Origin: a virus
Taxonomy: Duplodnaviria; Heunggongvirae; Uroviricota; Caudoviricetes
Length of the DNA: 35,620 nt
Direction: 5' to 3' (one strand)
IMG/VR virus record: IMGVR_UViG_3300029643_000041
The notes beneath the pieces were generated by a model. That model did no database searches. It was not told the origin of the DNA and saw only the letters and a program-made list of their open reading frames with translations. Below are positions 395 through 34,938 of the stretch, one piece after another (positions within the stretch are counted from its first letter, which is position 1; every line of letters starts with the position of its first letter). A program made the translations under genes and the position numbers.

Positions 395-487
395 CATTTT
401 TCGAGTTCTCCCCATTTTTGCTAAATTCACAATAATGATACCGCATTATTCCATTTTGCAAACTTAAAAGTTCTCCATTGCGAAGAA

Positions 488-1588
488 TCATTCCATTTCG
501 AAATCATCAATCCTCACTTCAAGCTCCAGACTGGTTGTAAAACCGTTATCGGGGCTGACGGTATGCGTCAGAGTCGTAATGGTCCATTCCGCATCATCTA
601 TCGGCTGTTTAAAGCCACTGACCTTCACAGGCATTTCTGTGTAGAGATCTGCCCGCCCTTCCGCCAGTTGTAGCGAGAATGATGCAACGCCGCGTTGCAG
701 GCGTTCCCACTGCATTTTCGCTGCCCGTTCGGCGTTGCTCCGGTTGGCATAAGTGCGATTAAGTACCAGCACGTTTTCATCCGTACCCACCAGGTAATCG
801 CCCTGCTTCTCTTCCGGCTCTTTCTTCTGCTTCTTAGTCCTGCGCTTACGCTTCACCGTAGTGCTTTCTTTCTTCGCGGGTTCGCGGGTATGCAACCAGC
901 TGGCAATTACCCCCGTGTAAGCTCCGCGATCTGCCAGGGTAAAGCGGTGACTGTCGCCGTCCTTACGTGTGATAGTAATCACCGGCAGTGGTTTACCGCT
1001 GGCGCTTTTGCCCTGTCCCTGCCGGATGAATAACAGATTGCCATTTTTCACCGATGCAATGGCACCGTACTGGCGCGCCAGCCGCATCAAAAAACTGCCG
1101 TCACTCTCATTAGTCTGGTCTATATGCTCCACGGGCTTATCCGACAGGTCTTTACCCAGTGCCATCTTCAGCTTGTGCCGCGCGGCTATTTCCTTCACCA
1201 CTTCCCCGATGGTGGTGTTATGCCACGATTTTTCACGGCGGGTATTCAGCGTTTCCCGAAAATCAGCACTTCGCGCCCGGATAGTCAGGCGGTCCGGTGC
1301 GCCAGTGTGTTCAATCTCGTCCACCGTGAATGCCCCTTTCGGGAAAAGCGGCTGCCCCTTCCAGCCCAGCGCCAGCGTAATGACCGCACCACGGCGCGGC
1401 AGCACGATTTTTCCGTCGGCGTCGTCCAGCTCCAGATCAAGCTGGTCCGCTTCAAAGCCCCGATTGTCCGTCAGCGTCAAACTCATCAGGCGGTTATCCA
1501 GCACAGTGGTGATATCCCTGCCCTCAATACTGATGCTGAATGCGGGAGTTTTGTTGCCTTTGTTAAGCAGTTCAGAGCTGAAATTCAC
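488..1588 (-). CDS. D: Tail protein D (late control gene D)
   Basis: 366 aa, position between ogr and U; recognised as P2 gpD family by sequence. Confidence 0.85.
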   Translation of the reverse strand: MNFSSELLNKGNKTPAFSISIEGRDITTVLDNRLMSLTLTDNRGFEADQLDLELDDADGKIVLPRRGAVITLALGWKGQPLFPKGAFTVDEIEHTGAPDRLTIRARSADFRETLNTRREKSWHNTTIGEVVKEIAARHKLKMALGKDLSDKPVEHIDQTNESDGSFLMRLARQYGAIASVKNGNLLFIRQGQGKSASGKPLPVITITRKDGDSHRFTLADRGAYTGVIASWLHTREPAKKESTTVKRKRRTKKQKKEPEEKQGDYLVGTDENVLVLNRTYANRSNAERAAKMQWERLQRGVASFSLQLAEGRADLYTEMPVKVSGFKQPIDDAEWTITTLTHTVSPDNGFTTSLELEVRIDDFEME

Positions 1589-22202: not shown

Positions 22203-22886
22203 TTAAGGCATTCTATTCTCAAAAACATGCTTTATCGCAGTGGTAAAGCATCTATCTTTTACATTCTTTTTAAACTCATCAAAGACCATAGATCTAACAT
22301 CTTCAATTTCACATCCTGATTCAATAAGCTGAGATGCACATCCGACCAGTTCCTTTATTAATGTCATGCTTAATTCTATTGCACGTCTTCTTTCCGCCTT
22401 GACTCCTCCTGAGGACGGGTTTAAGTTAAATACTCTTAACGTAACCTCTGCCATTTTGTGTTCTTTCTCATTCAAGCCTTCTCTAATATGAACATCACCA
22501 TTTTCCAAAAAATGGAAAAAAACATCTGGATTTTGTCTATCAGCTTTAATTAAATCATCATCGTTATATTTTTGCTTATCCTTATAAAACCCACACCTTT
22601 GCGGCTCACCACATGAGCCAAACAAATTAGACCACTCGAAAGTTAAATTTTTGTAATAACTTTTCCTGTAAAAATGTTCAATATGCCTCTCAACTTTATT
22701 TTTGCCACCACTTTTATGATGCTCTATTTTTTTCTCGCAATAAGCACATAATTTACCTTGCATTTTTATTATTTCTTCCCATATTTCTTTTTTATCATTT
22801 GATGATAGGGAATTCCAATCATCCCTCCTATAGTCAAATTTATTAAGAACGGAAGGCCCTGGCATTTGCCTAGATAGATATTTCAT
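22203..22886 (-). CDS. HNH endonuclease, Septu PtuB-like retron effector component
   Basis: 227 aa; CAYCEKKIEHH...VERHIEHFYRK...CGEPQRC HNH/zinc motif; start overlaps the ATPase stop (ATGA); strongly AT-rich. Confidence 0.8.
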   Translation of the reverse strand: MKYLSRQMPGPSVLNKFDYRRDDWNSLSSNDKKEIWEEIIKMQGKLCAYCEKKIEHHKSGGKNKVERHIEHFYRKSYYKNLTFEWSNLFGSCGEPQRCGFYKDKQKYNDDDLIKADRQNPDVFFHFLENGDVHIREGLNEKEHKMAEVTLRVFNLNPSSGGVKAERRRAIELSMTLIKELVGCASQLIESGCEIEDVRSMVFDEFKKNVKDRCFTTAIKHVFENRMP

Positions 22887-24517
22887 TTTACATCCTTACT
22901 TCCAGAAAAGTGCTGATTTATCTTATTTTTGAACTCCAAAACAGATATAAGATCATCACACTCTTGAACTAAAGGATGGTCTAATCCGAAATGTTTAATA
23001 ACTTTTTCTCTTAACAAAAGAGCCTCGTCACTGCTATAACGATTAAGCTCAACCAATTTTTTATATTCTTCAAGCCAACCATTTTCTTTAGTAGAGGGTA
23101 TAGGATCAGTTCTCATTCCATATAAAAGTGCATCCTGATTACTAACACCTTTTATTTGATAGTCGGGGTGAGACACTATCAAATCATTAACACCATCTAC
23201 TTCCACTTCCTGTAGAATACGCACTGAACGAGAGCTAACAGTGGATAAAACCTGTGGGCTATGGGTAGTAATTACAAATTGAACATTTGGGAATGTAGAT
23301 GTCAAACGCTCAATAATTGTCTGTTGCCATTGCGGATGCAAATGCAAATCAATTTCATCAATTAAAACAATCCCATATCCCAATAGAGGATTAGATAAAT
23401 TTGGATTAAGTAAAATTAAACGTCGAGCCAAATCACCAACTAAAGTAAATATAGTTTTCTCACCTTGAGACAACTGTTGAATATCTAATTCAACCTCTCC
23501 TTTTTTAAGGATAATCTTATAATCATCATCACCATAAACAAGCTTAATCCACTGAAATTCAGGCAAGAACTTTAGAATGGTATTTATAACACTATCATAA
23601 AGTGATACTGCATTATTAAACTTATGTTCTCCTGATTGCAGAGATTTCATGTAGTTCAATTTTTCTTTAAGCGAAAGCTCTAAACCTTTTATAACTGTTG
23701 AATCAATATTATCAATCGCAGATAGTTGAGTTAATGTTGCTTTCAAACTCTGAATATCTGAAAATAACGCATTGATTGTCGTTTGTGACTCACTCAATTT
23801 CTCTTGTGAAGCTCTGTTATGAAGAAATACAAGCCATTGAAAAAAATCGGTAAAATCATTTCTGTCAAACTCGATTTCATCATACACATCGAATTTTGAC
23901 CATACAGTTTTAGTTTTAGCATTTTTTCTTTTCCTATCAACCCCACCGCCTATATAAGAACGCGCAATAGAATAATATGCCATCAAAGGCAAGCTTGCAT
24001 TATCAACATATTTATTCACAAGTCTATAAATACTTGCAAGTTTTTTTATCTCCAACAATTCATTATTTCTAGAATAATATGCCCCCTCTTTCGCTTTAGT
24101 AATCAAAATACTGGTATTAAAGTCCTTGAGTTTTATATTTGCATCAATTGATGCATACTCAACATCAACAGAGTTATTAACTTCATGGCTTTTAATATAA
24201 GTACCAGGCTTACTCTCCTTTTCAATATTTGATCTCAACCAACTCAAAACAATTGCTATTGCATCCAAAATAGTGCTTTTACCGAATCCGTTATCCCCGA
24301 CAAAAACAGTCAAATCATCTTCTAAAGAAATCTGTAGTTCTCTTATCCGTTTAAAATCATGTATACCTATTTTATTTAAATGAAACTTACTCTCATTTAA
24401 AGTAGATATTAGCTTTTGAAGCTCAACAGACTCCTTCAAATAATCCTCGTTTATCACATGTGATTCCAACTCTAAAAAATCAACATAGCAAGTCTCTAAA
24501 TTCATTTTATTTATCAT
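22883..24517 (-). CDS. P-loop ATPase, Septu PtuA-like retron effector component
   Basis: 544 aa; Walker A VFVGDNGFGKST, Walker B VLIDEIDLHLHP, then ITTHSP; translationally coupled to the RT upstream and the HNH downstream. Confidence 0.8.
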   Translation of the reverse strand: MINKMNLETCYVDFLELESHVINEDYLKESVELQKLISTLNESKFHLNKIGIHDFKRIRELQISLEDDLTVFVGDNGFGKSTILDAIAIVLSWLRSNIEKESKPGTYIKSHEVNNSVDVEYASIDANIKLKDFNTSILITKAKEGAYYSRNNELLEIKKLASIYRLVNKYVDNASLPLMAYYSIARSYIGGGVDRKRKNAKTKTVWSKFDVYDEIEFDRNDFTDFFQWLVFLHNRASQEKLSESQTTINALFSDIQSLKATLTQLSAIDNIDSTVIKGLELSLKEKLNYMKSLQSGEHKFNNAVSLYDSVINTILKFLPEFQWIKLVYGDDDYKIILKKGEVELDIQQLSQGEKTIFTLVGDLARRLILLNPNLSNPLLGYGIVLIDEIDLHLHPQWQQTIIERLTSTFPNVQFVITTHSPQVLSTVSSRSVRILQEVEVDGVNDLIVSHPDYQIKGVSNQDALLYGMRTDPIPSTKENGWLEEYKKLVELNRYSSDEALLLREKVIKHFGLDHPLVQECDDLISVLEFKNKINQHFSGSKDVK

Positions 24518-25452
24518 TATTTGTTTCCTTCCATCAGGAACTTAGTTATTAACTCACAACCATATTTTTTTTGTAACCTTAATAAAAAATCACCCTCCAA
24601 ATAATTTGCAAACGCAATCATCCCTTTGGTTTTATTTATTTCTTCGGAAGATAAGAGTCCCAAAGAATATTTATGAATCTTTGCAAACAGCATCCTTTTA
24701 CGATCGCGACCAATTGATAAATTGCCCTGAGGTGTAAGTGTTACACCAGTCACGTGCCGATTATGAGCCATCGATGTAAAAATTGTTTTAGATTCATTGA
24801 TTGATAGACCGGGAACATGGAGCGACAACATTTTTTTTACCACCTTAGGAACCCTGCACAATATATCCTTAATATTAGTTGAAAAAGTTATATCATCTGC
24901 ATACCTTGAATAAGTGATACCATTGTTACGGCACCAATCATCAAGACTCTTGTCAAAGTCATACATAACAAAATTACTAATAAATGGTGAGCTTGGCGCC
25001 CCTACACTTAATATCAACGTTGTACTTCTCTTTTTTCCCGGACGCCAAAAAAGCAAATTACGTAGGGTGTTCTCATCAAATGAATCCAATTTCAGCCCTG
25101 TGTTCTCAAGTTTCGAGAAAAATATATCAGGTTTAATTTTGTTAAAGAAGTTCTGAAAATCCATTTTAAGAATATAATTATTATCTTTATGCAACAATGC
25201 ATTATCTTTAATACTTTTTTTATATTCATATGCCATTGCCTTATGATGAACAGGCAGCTTTGGCTGTAGCAAAGATACTATAAATCTCTGTACGTTTTTT
25301 AGTTCCTTTGTCGGCTGAGCTATCACCCGAAAACCTGCGCCACGTTTAGGAATATAATAAACTTTATATTTTTTGGGGGCCTCATTTAAAAGTAATTGGA
25401 AAGCTAATCTATTATAATTAAACTTACTGATAATTTTAGAAGTTAGTTGCAT
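24517..25452 (-). CDS. Retron-type reverse transcriptase
   Basis: 311 aa; ILKMDFQNFF, SVGAPSSPFISNF, YSRYADDITF (YxDD box) and the retron-typical VTG triplet (HNRHVTGVTL); AGAGGGG Shine-Dalgarno before the ATG; preceded by a structured non-coding region. Confidence 0.85.
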   Translation of the reverse strand: MQLTSKIISKFNYNRLAFQLLLNEAPKKYKVYYIPKRGAGFRVIAQPTKELKNVQRFIVSLLQPKLPVHHKAMAYEYKKSIKDNALLHKDNNYILKMDFQNFFNKIKPDIFFSKLENTGLKLDSFDENTLRNLLFWRPGKKRSTTLILSVGAPSSPFISNFVMYDFDKSLDDWCRNNGITYSRYADDITFSTNIKDILCRVPKVVKKMLSLHVPGLSINESKTIFTSMAHNRHVTGVTLTPQGNLSIGRDRKRMLFAKIHKYSLGLLSSEEINKTKGMIAFANYLEGDFLLRLQKKYGCELITKFLMEGNK

Positions 25453-25700
25453 ATAACCCCTCTTAAAACCAAAGCGCCATGCAACTTTACATAGCGCTTT
25501 GACTCTTCACTAAAGACAGCGAAAGACACAGATTTCTCCTTCGCATATCTGCCCCGGGCAGGGATGCGAAGGAGAAATCTGTGTCTTTCGCAACCCTAAA
25601 CCGGACAATAAATTTAAGCCTGGCTAATCACCCGGCTGGAACCAATGTTCCTACACTAAAGAGCGTAATGATTTTAATGAACAAATAGATATAAGGCAAG
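25453..25700 (-). ncRNA. Candidate retron msr-msd non-coding RNA (limits approximate)
   Basis: Non-coding stretch directly 5' of the RT on the same strand; 28-bp perfect inverted repeat (arms 25519-25546 and 25564-25591, 17-nt loop) consistent with an msd stem; smaller hairpins at 25638-25651 and 25461-25490. Flanking a1/a2 repeats were not resolved by eye. Confidence 0.5.
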
Positions 25701-25930: not shown

Positions 25931-26164
25931 TTAATGCAGCCAGCTGTCGTCTTCCCACACCTTCTGCATAATTTTCATCACTTGTTTTCTTTCTTCGTCC
26001 AGTTGCAGTCCGGTCAGTTCCACACCGTTAGAGCTACCTTTGCGGATACGAATTACCGTTTTGGGATACAGGGGGCGCAGATTGCGGTAAAGCTCGGATT
26101 CAAGGGCGTCCAGTGTAGACTGGCTAATCTTCTGCTCTTTATCGATCATTATTTCAATGCGCAT
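25931..26164 (-). CDS. DinI-family protein (Tum-like antirepressor C-terminal module)
   Basis: 77 aa from the internal Met with a GAGGTG Shine-Dalgarno; MRIEIMIDKEQKISQSTLDALESELYRNL...VWEDDSWL parallels E. coli DinI (MRIEVTIAK...). Confidence 0.8.
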   Translation of the reverse strand: MRIEIMIDKEQKISQSTLDALESELYRNLRPLYPKTVIRIRKGSSNGVELTGLQLDEERKQVMKIMQKVWEDDSWLH

Positions 26165-26174
26165 AAAAGTCACC

Positions 26175-26363
26175 TCAGCTGATGACATCCATTGAGCGGT
26201 TGTATTCGTGGGTTCTGATTTTTGCCATGAGTTCATCTGTCAGTTCAGAAACCCACTGCAGGGCCAGCCCCTTCTCTTCATCACTACACTCACTAGCCGC
26301 TACAAGCTTAAGAAAAAAATCAATGCGCTGGAGCTTCAAAGACTCCAAAAAATAGTCCTGCAT
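26175..26363 (-). CDS. Small acidic protein, first gene of the LexA-controlled operon (possible Tum N-terminal module)
   Basis: 62 aa ORF starting about 30-60 nt downstream of the LexA box; ends 10 nt before the DinI-like start. Confidence 0.45.
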   Translation of the reverse strand: MQDYFLESLKLQRIDFFLKLVAASECSDEEKGLALQWVSELTDELMAKIRTHEYNRSMDVIS

Positions 26364-26405
26364 CTTTCCTCCTATGACACCAAAGCAATACTGTATATAT
26401 AACCA

Positions 26406-26421
26406 CTGTTTATGTTTACAG
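26406..26421. promoter_or_regulatory. LexA operator (SOS box) CTGT-N8-ACAG
   Basis: ctgtttatgtttacag, overlapping a TATACT -10 element with a TTTACA -35 on the minus strand; an adjacent half-site tactgtatatata at 26389-26401. Confidence 0.65.
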
Positions 26422-26515
26422 TATATAATAATCTTACTGATGTAAAACGTTTTTTTACGCTCATCAGCCTGATATGCCTGGTATTATTAAGAGCACGAAT
26501 TGTTAACCCGCGTAA

Positions 26516-28888: not shown

Positions 28889-29718
28889 TACGCAATCTCC
28901 AGTTCGAGCTGTGAAGGCTGCAAACCATTCGACAGCCAGTCAGAAACTGAAGGTGGGCGAACAGCTTCAATTGCACCTTTTAAAATTGCGCAACGGTTTT
29001 TCAGAATGACAGCTTTCAGCTCCTTTTCCGTCAGATTGCGCGAATACTCAGCCTCCTGAATAGCCCGCGTAAGCTCAGGATATTTGCTATTAAATTTGGG
29101 GACATTGCAGGCAAGATTTGTACTGTCGGCAGTCGCCAGTGGGTAATTTCCCAACACACGACCGTCAAGCATGCGCAAACCATGAACAGCTGTTTTGAAA
29201 TTGTGTCGGCAATAAATTGCTTCAAAAGCGTCCTGCATACGACGATGCCAGTGCGCAGTTCTAATAGCCGCATATTCACCAGACGATCCAAAGCAGACAC
29301 GAGGCCATTCACGACATAGCTCGATAAGCCGATCGATTGACTCGTGCAGATGCCAGACGGGAGTTGCCTTCCCGTAGAACATTTTCGGAACTTCGTTTAT
29401 CAGGGCATCATTGTCACGTTCACCTCCGTCCACAACATCAGGAATGACAAAAAAAGCGACCTTAGGATGGTGGTAATAGTTCAGGAGCCATTTATAAAAA
29501 TCACTCCAGTTAATTTTTAGCCCACGCCCCCATGCAGAAAATGCGCCGTTATCAATGCCAACGACCTGAGCGTGCTGAATGGACGCCGCAATCTGATCTG
29601 GTCGTACATAGGAGACGAAAGCACCAGCTCCGCTCACCGCAATACGATGAACGTCGCCAGCACTTCCCCAGACAGGCGTCCCATGGAAATGATGAATTCC
29701 GTGGTGCATTTCTTTCAC
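28888..29718 (-). CDS. Hypothetical protein (276 aa), translationally coupled between dam and A
   Basis: Open frame with start overlapping the dam stop and stop overlapping the A start; His-rich N-terminus and a [10 protein letters not shown] motif; no family assigned by eye. Confidence 0.7.
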
Positions 29719-30569
29719 ACTTGCACCCCGAAAATAACAGTAGAGTCACGTCCCCTACTAAAATCGGCACTAAACCAATTAGCAGATTTAGTGGCAATCA
29801 TCTCTGTTGCAAATTTTCCCTCCCCCGCTGCAACGCCGATGCTGCGTTTCGCCCTGATGTAGTGGTGAGTGAAATTACGATAAAGAGACCGGGTCAAAGA
29901 CGTGTCACTGTTAGAAACAATGACCGGATGTCCTTCAGATGCTCGATGTTCAAGAACGGATGCCAGGTGATACTGGTCATCTTCAGTGAAACCATCAGTG
30001 TGATAGCCGGAAAACGTACCGTCATACGGCGGATCGCAATACACCACATCCCCCGCCTTCAACATCGCCAGCGTTTCATCAAAGCTGGCGCAGAAAAACG
30101 TTGCCCGCTGGGCTTTTTCTGCAAATGCGCGAATTTCTTTTTCAGGGAAATACGGATTTTTATAATTACCGTAGGGAATGTTGAAATGCCCGCTCTTGTT
30201 ATAGCGGCATAAACCACGGTAACCGTGACGATTGAGATACAGAAAATATACCGCTTTCATGAAATCAGTAATTTCAGTGGAGTAATTAAACTCCTGCCTT
30301 ATGTTGTAATAAGCCACCTCCCTGTTTGCGATCTCAAATAAAACTCTGGCGCGAGATATAAACGATTCACAATCAGCGGCAACCTTTTTATAGAGGTTGA
30401 TTAAATCAGGATTAATATCCGCAACCAGATAGCTGGGGTAATCCGTCTCCATCATCACAGCACAGGAACCCGCGAAAGGTTCAACCAGTCGCGGGCCAGC
30501 AGGAAGGTGTTTTTTCAGTTCGGACATTATGGCGGTTTTATTTCCCGCCCATTTCAGGATAGTGCTCAT
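29715..30569 (-). CDS. dam: DNA adenine methyltransferase, Dam-like (D12 class)
   Basis: ILKWAGNK N-terminal motif and DPPY catalytic motif ([10 protein letters not shown]); start taken at the Met of [11 protein letters not shown] (track ORF begins 20 codons upstream at TTG). Confidence 0.85.
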
Positions 30570-30793
30570 ACAGCACCTCCGTTGTAATGTTTGCCTTTCA
30601 GCTCTGCGATTTCCTGACAGGTAATGCAAAGCTGCACACCCGGAATGGCACGGCGGCGTGCTGGCGGAATTGGCGCTTCACACTCAATGCAAAGCACGCG
30701 AGACACGCCCGGTGTTTTGGCACGGGCAGCACGGATATGGCGCTGGCGTTCTTCTTCAACGCGCTGCTGTACGAGATCCATTGCATCAGCCAT
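30566..30793 (-). CDS. TraR/DksA-family C4 zinc-finger protein
   Basis: 75 aa; CIECEAPIP...CITCQ four-cysteine motif. Confidence 0.75.
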   Translation of the reverse strand: MADAMDLVQQRVEEERQRHIRAARAKTPGVSRVLCIECEAPIPPARRRAIPGVQLCITCQEIAELKGKHYNGGAV

Positions 30794-31606: not shown

Positions 31607-32122
31607 TCACAGCAAACCGAATGAAGCACCGAGGCCAGTCACGGTATCAACTGCACTCGCCATCGCAGGATTAGCCTGTAAACGGGCCTGCAATGAAACA
31701 GCAGCCAGCGCCATCAGTCGTGTTACAGAGTTAATGCTGCTGATAGCATCACGACGACCGGCACTAGTTTTTACATCACCAGATACCGCACCTGCTGCAA
31801 CACGTCCGATCTCTGCAGTTGCGCTCATGACGTAATGCGGCAGTTTCTCTTTTGCAACCTCATTAATCGGTACACATGGCAGGCAGTGAATCTGTGCCAG
31901 AAAACCATCTACCAGCGTTGAATCTTCAGTCAGATCGGTAAGCAGCCAGATTTCTGGTGCGGTTAATAAATGAGGCTGAGCTGGGTTCAGCTTGTTCCGC
32001 AGAATCTGCACATTCATGCCTGCACGTTCTGCCAGTTGCACCAGATTGTGGCGCAGTGCAAATGCACGACAGGCTTCATCAAAATGTGGATGTTTGGAAA
32101 CTTGGTAATCAAACATGGTCAA
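31607..32122 (-). CDS. cII: CII-like lysogeny establishment regulator (186 CII family)
   Basis: 171 aa; [24 protein letters not shown]...[25 protein letters not shown]...[21 protein letters not shown] closely parallels 186 CII as recalled. Confidence 0.8.
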
Positions 32123-32148: not shown

Positions 32149-32370
32149 CTAATTAAGGTTTAGATTGCATTCTGAAAGCGCATCAACGGTCATGGCTGCT
32201 ATGTTGATCATCACTTTTTCGCGTTTTTTATCTTTACGCAAACGGTGACGGATAAGGCGTCCATCAGCCAACATGTCATTGATGGTATCGATGGACAGTC
32301 CTGTCAGCTCGCTATAGCGTTCAATAGTCACATGAGGCGTGGTAAGAGTGATTGAAATGTTAGGTCTCAT
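32149..32370 (-). CDS. apl: Apl/Cox-like excisionase and switch regulator
   Basis: 73 aa HTH protein, first gene of the lytic operon, divergent from cI. Confidence 0.75.
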
Positions 32371-32414
32371 GATGCAACATTCCTCGTTTAATGATGATTA
32401 ATCAGGACGAATAC

Positions 32415-32454
32415 GGATCGTTTGTATTTTGTGAACACCATAAACATACGATCG
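32415..32454. promoter_or_regulatory. Candidate immunity-switch operator palindrome between apl and cI
   Basis: ggatcgtttgtatttt-gtgaacacc-ataaacatacgatcg, an imperfect inverted repeat centred in the 119-bp switch region. Confidence 0.4.
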
Positions 32455-32495
32455 CATCATGAAATCGTCAAGATAAAAGTTCACTTGGAGTGACC

Positions 32496-33065
32496 ATGAA
32501 TTTGGAGAAAGGCGGACGAGGCGCTATAGAGCGCATGGTAGAAGCTTATGGATTCAAAACTCGACAGGCGTTGTGCGATCATTTAGGAATCTCTAAAAGT
32601 ACACTCGCTACACGCTACATGCGTGACTCATTCCCAGCAGAATGGGTAATCCAGTGCGCCCTTGAAACGGGCACCTCGCTTAATTGGCTCACAACTGGAC
32701 ATGGTTCAAAGCAAACTTCAGGTAATACAAATACGATGGAAGTTGCTAAGTATGTATTATCTGATGGTGCCTTGCGTGAAGACGGTTTTTATATTTTTGA
32801 TAAGGGATTTCTACCCTCTACGTTTAAAAAACCTTTTGTCATCACAGATAACAATTCTGAATTTATTTGTGATAAAGAATTTGATGATATACGTGATGGT
32901 AAATGGGTAATAAGTATTGATGGCGAAATAACAATCCGCGACATTACTCGTTTACCCGGTGGAAGAATCTTCGTTGAAGGTGGAAACAGATCCTTCGAGT
33001 GCAAGATAGAAGATGTTGAAATAATTGGAAAAATTATAAGTTTAACAATTAAGTACGTTAGGTAA
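32496..33065 (+). CDS. cI: CI immunity repressor (186 CI-like)
   Basis: 189 aa from the ATG preceded by GGAG; N-terminal HTH (ERMVEAYGFKTRQALCDHLGISKSTLATRY), position upstream of int. Confidence 0.8.
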   Translation: MNLEKGGRGAIERMVEAYGFKTRQALCDHLGISKSTLATRYMRDSFPAEWVIQCALETGTSLNWLTTGHGSKQTSGNTNTMEVAKYVLSDGALREDGFYIFDKGFLPSTFKKPFVITDNNSEFICDKEFDDIRDGKWVISIDGEITIRDITRLPGGRIFVEGGNRSFECKIEDVEIIGKIISLTIKYVR

Positions 33066-33080
33066 TACCGGGAGTAAACT

Positions 33081-33272
33081 ATGCTTGGTAAGGTATTTTT
33101 TGTGGTTTTATCATGCTCTTTGTTATTAAACCCACTAACTACCTATGCTAAAAATTATCCTTGTTCTGGGAAAAAGGGAGGTGTCTCTCACTGTACCTCC
33201 GATGGAAAGTTCGTTTGCAATGATGGAACCATTAGTAAATCAAAAAAAATCTGTACTAAAAACTCGCGATAA
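33081..33272 (+). CDS. Small secreted cysteine-containing basic peptide (candidate moron)
   Basis: 63 aa; signal peptide [23 protein letters not shown], then a mature part with four Cys and many Lys; AT-rich; between cI and int. Confidence 0.5.
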
Positions 33273-34818: not shown

Positions 34819-34823
34819 AACAA

Positions 34824-34847
34824 GTGGCGACAAAGTGGCGGCAGCGG
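34824..34847. repeat. Candidate Int arm-type site (P arm)
   Basis: gtggcgacaaagtggcggcagcgg, a near copy of 155-177. Confidence 0.4.
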
Positions 34848-34938
34848 TTGGCATTACCCCGTAATCACCACCACTGACCACCAACCCAACTTATTGTTTT
34901 TACTCTAACTTATTGTTTCCATTAACCCATTTACATAA

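Follow-up and report, generated by a model that had tools for sequence, protein, structure and literature searches.

The 125-bp interval between the divergent apl-like and cI genes (positions 32371-32495) of the viral sequence IMGVR_UViG_3300029643_000041 is probably the immunity (lysis-lysogeny) switch of a 186-type (Peduoviridae) temperate phage of the PhiECO1 immunity class, with two facing promoters and with sites for the immunity repressor CI over the lytic promoter pR. The sequence was analysed over its whole length of 35,620 nucleotides (the window), and all positions refer to it. The window is a member of a known, functionally unmapped, heteroimmune 186-type class. One feature, a hypervariable triplet at the centre of a candidate operator, is unexpected; otherwise the switch is as an annotator would expect between cI and apl. 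For a class whose switch had not been mapped, the two promoters and two or three candidate operators can now be given coordinates. Site coordinates for phage 186 itself were taken from its GenBank annotation.

The genes on either side of the interval belong to the 186 families (Table 1). Among solved structures, the best match of the window's CI is 186 CI (PDB 2FJR, E = 3e-31; 2FKD also matched), to which it is 32% identical overall and 39% identical in the DNA-binding domain. The Apl-like protein matches 186 Apl weakly and can barely be aligned with it. Behind the apl-like gene lie genes for CII (Phage_CP76, PF06892, E = 3e-42), for Fil (Phage_186_Fil) and for a DUF5347 protein, and an integrase gene lies downstream of cI (Pfam). 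The resulting order in the map of open reading frames, with cI-int divergent from apl-cII-fil and families assigned by Pfam and PHROG, is that of the annotated 186 GenBank record. The original prediction of a 186-type switch with facing promoters is thus upheld by the gene families and the structure match, together with a pR-like site directed toward apl and a pL-like site that aligns with 186 pL. Its length of 119 bp for the interval has to be corrected to 125 bp. The cI ATG at 32496 stands 5 nucleotides after a GGAG Shine-Dalgarno sequence (32487-90), which the alternative GTG at 32490 overlaps, and 125 nucleotides is also the published spacer length of the PhiECO1-type class (PMC3448106).

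PhiECO1, PhiECO2 and PhiSEN1 were noted by Nilsson et al. (2011) as a 'possible immunity class' on the basis of how similar their CI proteins and how long their spacers are, in a work that mapped neither promoters nor operators (PMC3448106). The published limits of the class are CI proteins more than 96% identical and a 125-nucleotide cI-apl spacer that is 98-100% identical (PMC3448106). The window, with values of 95% for CI and 97.6% for the spacer (3 of 125 nucleotides differ), lies just under each figure and was assigned to the class. Its CI shares the N-terminal 93 residues with that of PhiECO1 of E. coli HS without a change, and the two spacers are identical save for the triplet 32457-59, where the window carries a rare TCA allele. 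The prophage is integrated beside rcdA, the same site as that of PhiECO1 in E. coli HS. As DNA, the region was not found in phage 186 itself; it was found in 657 of 5,426 complete E. coli genomes, and the immunity class is present in about one in ten of them (510-657 of 5,426).

Promoter prediction on both strands and comparison with the operators of 186 pR and pL had been suggested earlier as checks on the interval. These gave a pR-like site on the minus strand and a weak pL-like site on the plus strand, facing each other, and both pairs of hexamers align with those of the annotated 186 promoters. The pR equivalent is the sole promoter-like site of the spacer in the consensus scan. It is sigma-70-like, adjoins cI and is directed at apl, with a start predicted near 32436 from which the apl-cII-fil operon would be transcribed. 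In the reverse-complement view, TTGAC(G/A)-N17-TAnnnT is kept at the same place in every heteroimmune relative. The predicted pL equivalent overlaps the start of apl and would initiate transcription of the cI-int operon near 32386-32390. Its hexamers align base for base with annotated 186 pL (TTGCGA-17-CATGAT), whose -35 also lies inside apl. GCAACAT at the pL -10 is invariant in 8 divergent spacers, although all it spans is the gap between the Shine-Dalgarno sequence and the ATG of apl. The predicted starts of pR and pL are about 50 bp apart, and the two transcripts would overlap by about 50 bp. In P2-like phages, facing promoter starts lie 40-60 bp apart (PMC7498355). Taken with these predicted starts, a face-to-face arrangement of the putative lytic and lysogenic promoters is well supported. 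At the start of cII, the inverted half-sites ATGTTTG..CAAACAT of the 186 CII-binding feature are kept in the window, and this site is predicted to be the equivalent of the activator site of 186 pE.

Comparison with relatives revealed that the spacer is strongly conserved and that it moves with the DNA-binding domain of CI. In relatives from Enterobacter (L005) and Klebsiella (L006) the spacer differs from that of the window at only 9-10 of 125 positions (about 92% conserved), whereas 51-60% of third codon positions in apl and in the coding sequence of the CI N-terminus differ (Fisher p ~1e-19 versus the spacer). The spacer is under strong purifying selection. The CI proteins of these two relatives share 93-94% of the N-terminal domain with that of the window and only 36-48% of the C-terminal domain. 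The reverse is seen in the sister class represented by L004, where the C-terminal domain is 93% and the N-terminal domain 82% identical, and the spacer is unrelated between the conserved promoter hexamers. CI is modular among the window and these three relatives, its two domains having been recombined with an exchange point near residue 72-80, and in all four the spacer travels with the N-terminal domain. The DNA-binding domain of CI and the spacer are inherited together. Those parts of the spacer that are class-specific (32386-32446, 32456-65 and 32472-95) follow the specificity of CI and not Apl, because the Apl-like protein is 84-92% identical across all these classes. New immunities arise in this family when the DNA-binding domain of CI and the spacer are exchanged as a pair; the C-terminal domain, Apl and pL stay in place. 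These phages form a useful natural series for studying how the 186-type 'wheel' repressors recognise DNA.

Two symmetric sequences over pR are the principal candidates for CI operators. One of them, I1, is the imperfect inverted repeat centred on gtgaacacc that had been described before, and it was recovered by the repeat finder. Its arms, GATCGTTTGTATTTTGTG (32416-32433) and CACCATAAACATACGATC (32436-32453), are complementary at 14 of 18 positions and are separated by 2 nucleotides. The centre at 32434/35, within gtgaacacc, falls at about +1.5 relative to the predicted pR start, and the element extends from just upstream of the pR -10 to about +21. The atacg(g)atcg repeats reported alongside it are present as ATACGGATCG (32412-21) and ATACGATCG (32447-55). 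Both contain the self-complementary CGATCG and form the outer arms of I1; they are neither a separate feature nor above chance. I1 is invariant across 83 loci of the class. It pairs at 14 of 18 positions in L005 and at 13 of 18 in L006.

The other candidate, P4, was absent from the original prediction and is at least as good an operator candidate as I1. It pairs at 8 of 10 arm positions and fills the 17-nucleotide spacer between the -35 and -10 hexamers of pR, and its left arm CGATCG is shared with I1. A pairwise alignment matches P4 to ATCTCCCAATTGAGAGAT of 186, the palindromic central operator of its pR, located between the two hexamers within the annotated CI-binding region. P4 is the only match to ACGAT-N11-ATCGT in the 35.6-kb window, for a pattern that was picked after the site had been seen. 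The arms of P4 are nearly invariant among the 83 loci (one or two loci differ at a few arm positions), and its centre is hypervariable. The centres of P4 and I1, at about -22 and +1.5 relative to pR, coincide with two of the three operator positions at 186 pR, which are deduced from the annotated 57-bp CI-binding region and a two-turn spacing. Three operators two turns apart give strong binding at pR in 186 (PMC3675496). A weak candidate for a third operator in the window is a dyad just upstream of the pR -35, which overlaps the Shine-Dalgarno sequence of cI and in L005 is changed only in its spacer. The pattern TTCAC-N5-GTGAA, searched with up to one mismatch in the whole window, gave 2 matches where 1.1 are expected, which is not significant; one of the two adjoins the cI start. 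The candidate dyad centres are 32434.5, 32458 and about 32481.5-32487, with 23.5 bp between those of I1 and P4. Dissimilarity among such dyads has a precedent, because 186 CI recognises two distinct sequence types, according to reference 5 as cited in PMC3675496. Each of the other immunity classes also has its own dyad at, around or just downstream of the pR -10 (GTACCCAATTGGGTAC, ATTCCC-N5-GGGAAT and AGGTTTG-N5-CAAACCT). In one group the changes on the two arms are matched, AGGTTTG..CAAACCT becoming GGGTTTG..CAAACCC in a sister sequence.

The triplet at the exact centre of P4 stands out in an otherwise nearly invariant spacer. The window reads TCA there, and E. coli HS and most relatives read CAG. 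Across the 83 loci the surrounding 7-mer (CATCATG in the window) has 12 alleles, the commonest being CACAGTG (50 loci) and CACGGTG (13 loci); the allele of the window occurs in 4. In 1,960 bp compared over 56 loci, all four bases occur at one site only, 32458; 3-bp windows placed on it show 7 alleles, and those elsewhere never more than 4. Loci with the same flanking haplotype over 1,453 bp can carry different alleles, and the 80-residue N-terminus of CI is identical in all 74 loci. Among complete E. coli genomes carrying the region, the TCA allele occurs in 0 of 510 and the E. coli HS allele in 240 of 512. No similar hotspot was found in 46 loci of the sister L004 immunity class. In the common alleles 32457 is complementary to 32459 (T..A or C..G), which cannot reflect hairpin pairing, since only one base would be left for the loop.

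Most simply, the triplet would comprise the only bases of the pR spacer contacted by neither RNA polymerase nor repressor. An uncontacted dyad centre is expected of a dimer site, and the hypervariable centre therefore supports P4 as a real protein site. That the triplet has more alleles than synonymous sites do calls for a mutational hotspot at this place, or else for selection on the strength of operator or promoter. Tentatively, and with low confidence, the triplet may be a natural 'tuning knob', in which uncontacted bases set the affinity of CI or the strength of pR and turn over rapidly, by recurrent mutation or under diversifying selection; prophages alike in all else would then differ in how stable their lysogens are or in the threshold of induction. 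The data on the triplet fit a local mutational hotspot without functional effect equally well. If functional, the hypervariable dyad centre would be a rare natural case of operator-centre tuning in a prophage population.

Several results weigh against the assignment of CI sites over pR and of I1 in particular. I1 was compared with the palindromes of 2000 dinucleotide-preserving shuffles of the 125-bp spacer. Shuffles reached or beat it in 2.3% of cases with +1/-1 scoring, in 6% with +1/-1.5 and in 49% with +1/-2, a marginal result, and with +1/-3 it was no longer the top palindrome of the spacer. The longest exact direct repeat of the spacer is 6 nucleotides and was equalled in 89% of shuffles; no over-representation of 5-, 6- or 7-mers was seen in the spacer versus the shuffles. 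The core of I1 is unlike P4, and no further copy of that core, of the P4 arm or of the whole P4 dyad was found beyond chance in the window. Autocorrelation of the spacer gave no 21-bp operator periodicity, whereas the same test on phage 186 gave lags of 10, 21, 31-32 and 42-43. Neither cI nor the apl-cII junction, where sites like 186 FL and FR would lie about 300 bp on either side of pR, yielded a conserved dyad; distal CI sites of a different, unrecognised sequence may exist. Since nearly every base of the spacer is conserved, conservation cannot pick out operator bases. The pL-like hexamers have 8 of 12 consensus matches, under the threshold of the promoter scan. I1 is thus weak by its internal statistics, which are marginal, and its weight rests on position and conservation.

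These statistics bear directly on the possibility that I1 is no functional unit and is the chance product of two CGATCG elements and promoter sequence, the real CI operators being P4 and/or other sites over pR. Apart from the loss of significance under stricter scoring, only 6 of the 9 inner arm positions pair, the pair lost in L006 is not compensated, the sole signature that marks a dyad centre belongs to P4, and it is P4 that aligns with the palindromic 186 operator. Its invariance argues for I1, as does its location across the -10 and the start, where other classes carry dyads of their own and near which (about +1) a 186 operator is also centred. A chance origin of I1 is rather unlikely. 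Sensitivity of pR or of CI binding to Dam methylation through the paired GATC sequences (32417-20 and 32450-53), the arms being conserved for methylation as well as, or instead of, repressor contact, is improbable. Just upstream of the pR -10, all non-186 classes examined retain a GATC, irrespective of CI specificity. A gene for a D12-class adenine methylase (dam, 29715-30629, minus strand) is present in the window, ON470620 and L105, all three of the prophages viewed with their complete gene content; in those annotated regions of phage 186 that were examined, both the GATC and a dam gene are missing. This is a correlation only, the second GATC (32417-20) is particular to this class, and two GATC in 125 bp are ordinary (1.1 expected).

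An assignment of the palindrome and repeats to the Cox/Apl-like excisionase-repressor, in place of CI, is more improbable still. Seven Apl sites of 186 lie between pR and pL from about +1 of pR (186 annotation; PMC7498355), and I1 occupies the equivalent stretch. Yet the Apl-like protein is nearly constant across heteroimmune classes that have unrelated sequence at the I1 position, and sites of the Apl/Cox type are direct repeats one helical turn (10-11 bp) apart (PMC7498355), not inverted ones. For these two reasons the Apl half of the earlier proposal of CI/Apl operator sites is unlikely. The CI half stands as a candidate operator position over the pR -10 and start, where the sequence changes with the DNA-binding domain of CI. 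A search of the spacer for Apl direct repeats gave only a weak lag-11 autocorrelation (z = 1.9), and attR holds no sequence like I1. Among motifs common to the five classes with the same Apl, only ATGTTGC, covering the pL -10 and leader, is universal; TAATCA(C/T), found near pL, is a weak hint of an Apl/Cox box and is also present in attR, where GTAATCACC stands at 34860-34868. No convincing Apl boxes common to the spacer and attR were found. A hairpin in the cI leader, formed in transcripts from pL or pE and affecting the stability or translation of cI mRNA, is very improbable as the explanation of the palindrome. The plus-strand arms can fold (-11.9 kcal/mol), but the fold is no better than those of shuffles (z -1.0 to -1.5), has no Rfam match and shows no compensatory change in relatives, and a pR transcript would hold one arm only.

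With CI sites over pR as the preferred interpretation, the switch would operate as follows. In the prophage, CI would occupy the symmetric sites over the lytic promoter, P4 and the overlapping I1, with a possible third site (TTCAC-N5-GTGAC) upstream of the -35, and would block RNA polymerase at pR. As in 186, the block at pR should free pL from transcriptional interference by pR. A strong pR would drive apl-cII-fil and the replication genes, and a weak pL would drive cI-int. After infection, CII made from the pR transcript would activate a pE-like promoter at the start of cII for the establishment of CI. The Cox/Apl-like protein probably acts closer to pL. Upon SOS induction, a LexA-controlled DinI/Tum-like protein probably inactivates CI. 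Which bases CI contacts, where the transcripts start, that pR interferes with pL and what Apl and Tum do in this scheme are what we infer from the arrangement of the sites and from 186.

The pR-pL switch of 186, with CI, Apl and CII (Dodd, Egan, Shearwin and colleagues), resembles that of the window in gene order, protein families and facing promoters, with the pL -35 in apl and pR beside cI, and in the placing of one dyad within the pR spacer and of a second around +1. A LexA box upstream of a DinI/Tum-like gene is also common to both. The two differ in that the candidate operator sequences of the window are unrelated to those of 186, and in the low identity of the CI proteins. The promoter starts are 62 bp apart in 186 versus the shorter distance predicted here, and the dyads are 21 bp apart versus 23.5 bp. 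The FL and FR distal sites, the 10/21-bp periodicity and the Apl repeat array of 186 were not detected in the window. Unlike 186 in its examined regions, the window carries its own dam gene and, at pR, a GATC that is conserved. The C-Cox switches of P2 and WPhi likewise have facing early and repressor promoters, an operator over the lytic promoter and a Cox-type protein near the lysogenic promoter. In contrast, C of P2 is a small, unrelated repressor that acts on direct repeats, and P2 has no cII, whereas the window has a two-domain 186-type CI and inverted-repeat candidates.

Table 1. Positions of the elements of the proposed switch, its genes and the retron genes in the window
Feature	Position	Strand	Basis
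I1, 38-bp imperfect palindrome; candidate CI operator	32416..32453	.	Repeat finder; spans the pR -10 and predicted start
P4, 21-bp dyad ACGATCGCAT-C-ATGAAATCGT; candidate CI operator	32448..32468	.	Palindrome search, centre 32458.0
Hypervariable triplet, exact centre of P4	32457..32459 (sometimes also 32456)	.	Allele counts among 83 loci
GTTCAC-TTGGA-GTGACC dyad, weak candidate third operator	32479..32495	.	Half-site and geometry as in annotated 186 FL, FR and pB (TTCAC-N5-GTGAA)
Predicted lytic promoter, pR equivalent: -35 TTGACG (32471..32466), 17-nucleotide spacer, -10 TATGTT (32448..32443)	32443..32471	-	Consensus scan
Predicted lysogenic promoter, pL equivalent: -35 TTGAAA (32352-57, in apl), 17-nucleotide spacer, -10 CAACAT (32375-80)	32352..32380	+	Alignment to 186 pL
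TAATCAT, weak candidate Apl/Cox box near pL	32394..32400	-	TAATCA(C/T) in 4 of 5 classes sharing this Apl; a hint
cI, immunity repressor, 189 amino acids	32496..33065	+	Pfam PF07022 (Phage_CI_repr, E = 2.7e-33) and PF16452 (Phage_CI_C, E = 1.1e-28)
apl/cox-like gene, 73 amino acids, first in lytic operon	32149..32370	-	PHROG 575 'Cox-like excisionase and repressor', E = 6e-31
apl-like Shine-Dalgarno sequence GAGGAA	32380..32385	-	Direct reading of the sequence; apl ATG at 32370..32368
CII-type inverted half-sites ATGTTTGG-N11-TCAAACAT at cII start	32090..32116	.	Same half-sites in annotated 186 CII-binding feature
Retron reverse transcriptase	24517-25452	-	
Retron PtuA-like ATPase	22883-24517	-	
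Retron PtuB/HNH-like protein	22203-22886	-	

A number of other repeats were considered and rejected. A perfect 9-nucleotide inverted repeat (32367-75 and 32454-62) exists only with the rare TCA allele of the window. The CATGATG direct repeats at 32327, 32364 and 32386 were set aside, the copy at 32386-96 being altered in L005 and L006. A 31-bp palindrome in cI (32842-32872), taken as an analogue of FL, has a left arm that is not conserved in the same two relatives, and the CGCTATAG palindromes at 32310-19 and 32521-34, taken as flanking operators, are not kept in them.

The promoter of the late activator, pB (396-490, minus strand), lies upstream of an ogr/B-like gene (179-430) and aligns with pR over about 60 bp. 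AGnGAACTTTTA, two bases ahead of the -35, and GTATnnTTATnGTG, around the -10, are common to the two, and the score of the local alignment has p = 0.033 versus shuffles and 0.006 versus other segments of the window. As a guide to operator bases pB was rejected; only 3 substitutions separate it from its counterpart in a heteroimmune prophage of the L004 class, whose pR is unrelated.

At about 26395-26435 on the minus strand, a LexA-box-like sequence, TACTGTAAACATAAACAGTG, lies upstream of a 62-amino-acid open reading frame (PHROG 698) and a DinI-like open reading frame (26175-26363 and 25931-26236, minus strand). This module is the counterpart of the p95-tum SOS antirepressor of 186, here apparently split into two open reading frames. 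In the attR region beside rcdA (34820-34935), two AAGTGGCG repeats match the reverse complement of the consensus of the 186 Int arm sites; the region also holds GTAATCACC and two CTTATTGTTT direct repeats 20 bp apart, before a terminator-like hairpin.

Between cI and int, inside the lysogenic operon, a 63-amino-acid open reading frame (33081-33272, plus strand; PHROG 6000) encodes a cysteine-rich product with a signal-peptide-like N-terminus. It is labelled 'YdcA family' in some genomes and is likely a lysogenic-conversion 'moron'. A type I-A retron (22203-25700, minus strand) interrupts the stretch from the portal gene to the tum region, and a long msd-like inverted repeat lies upstream at about 25530-25600.

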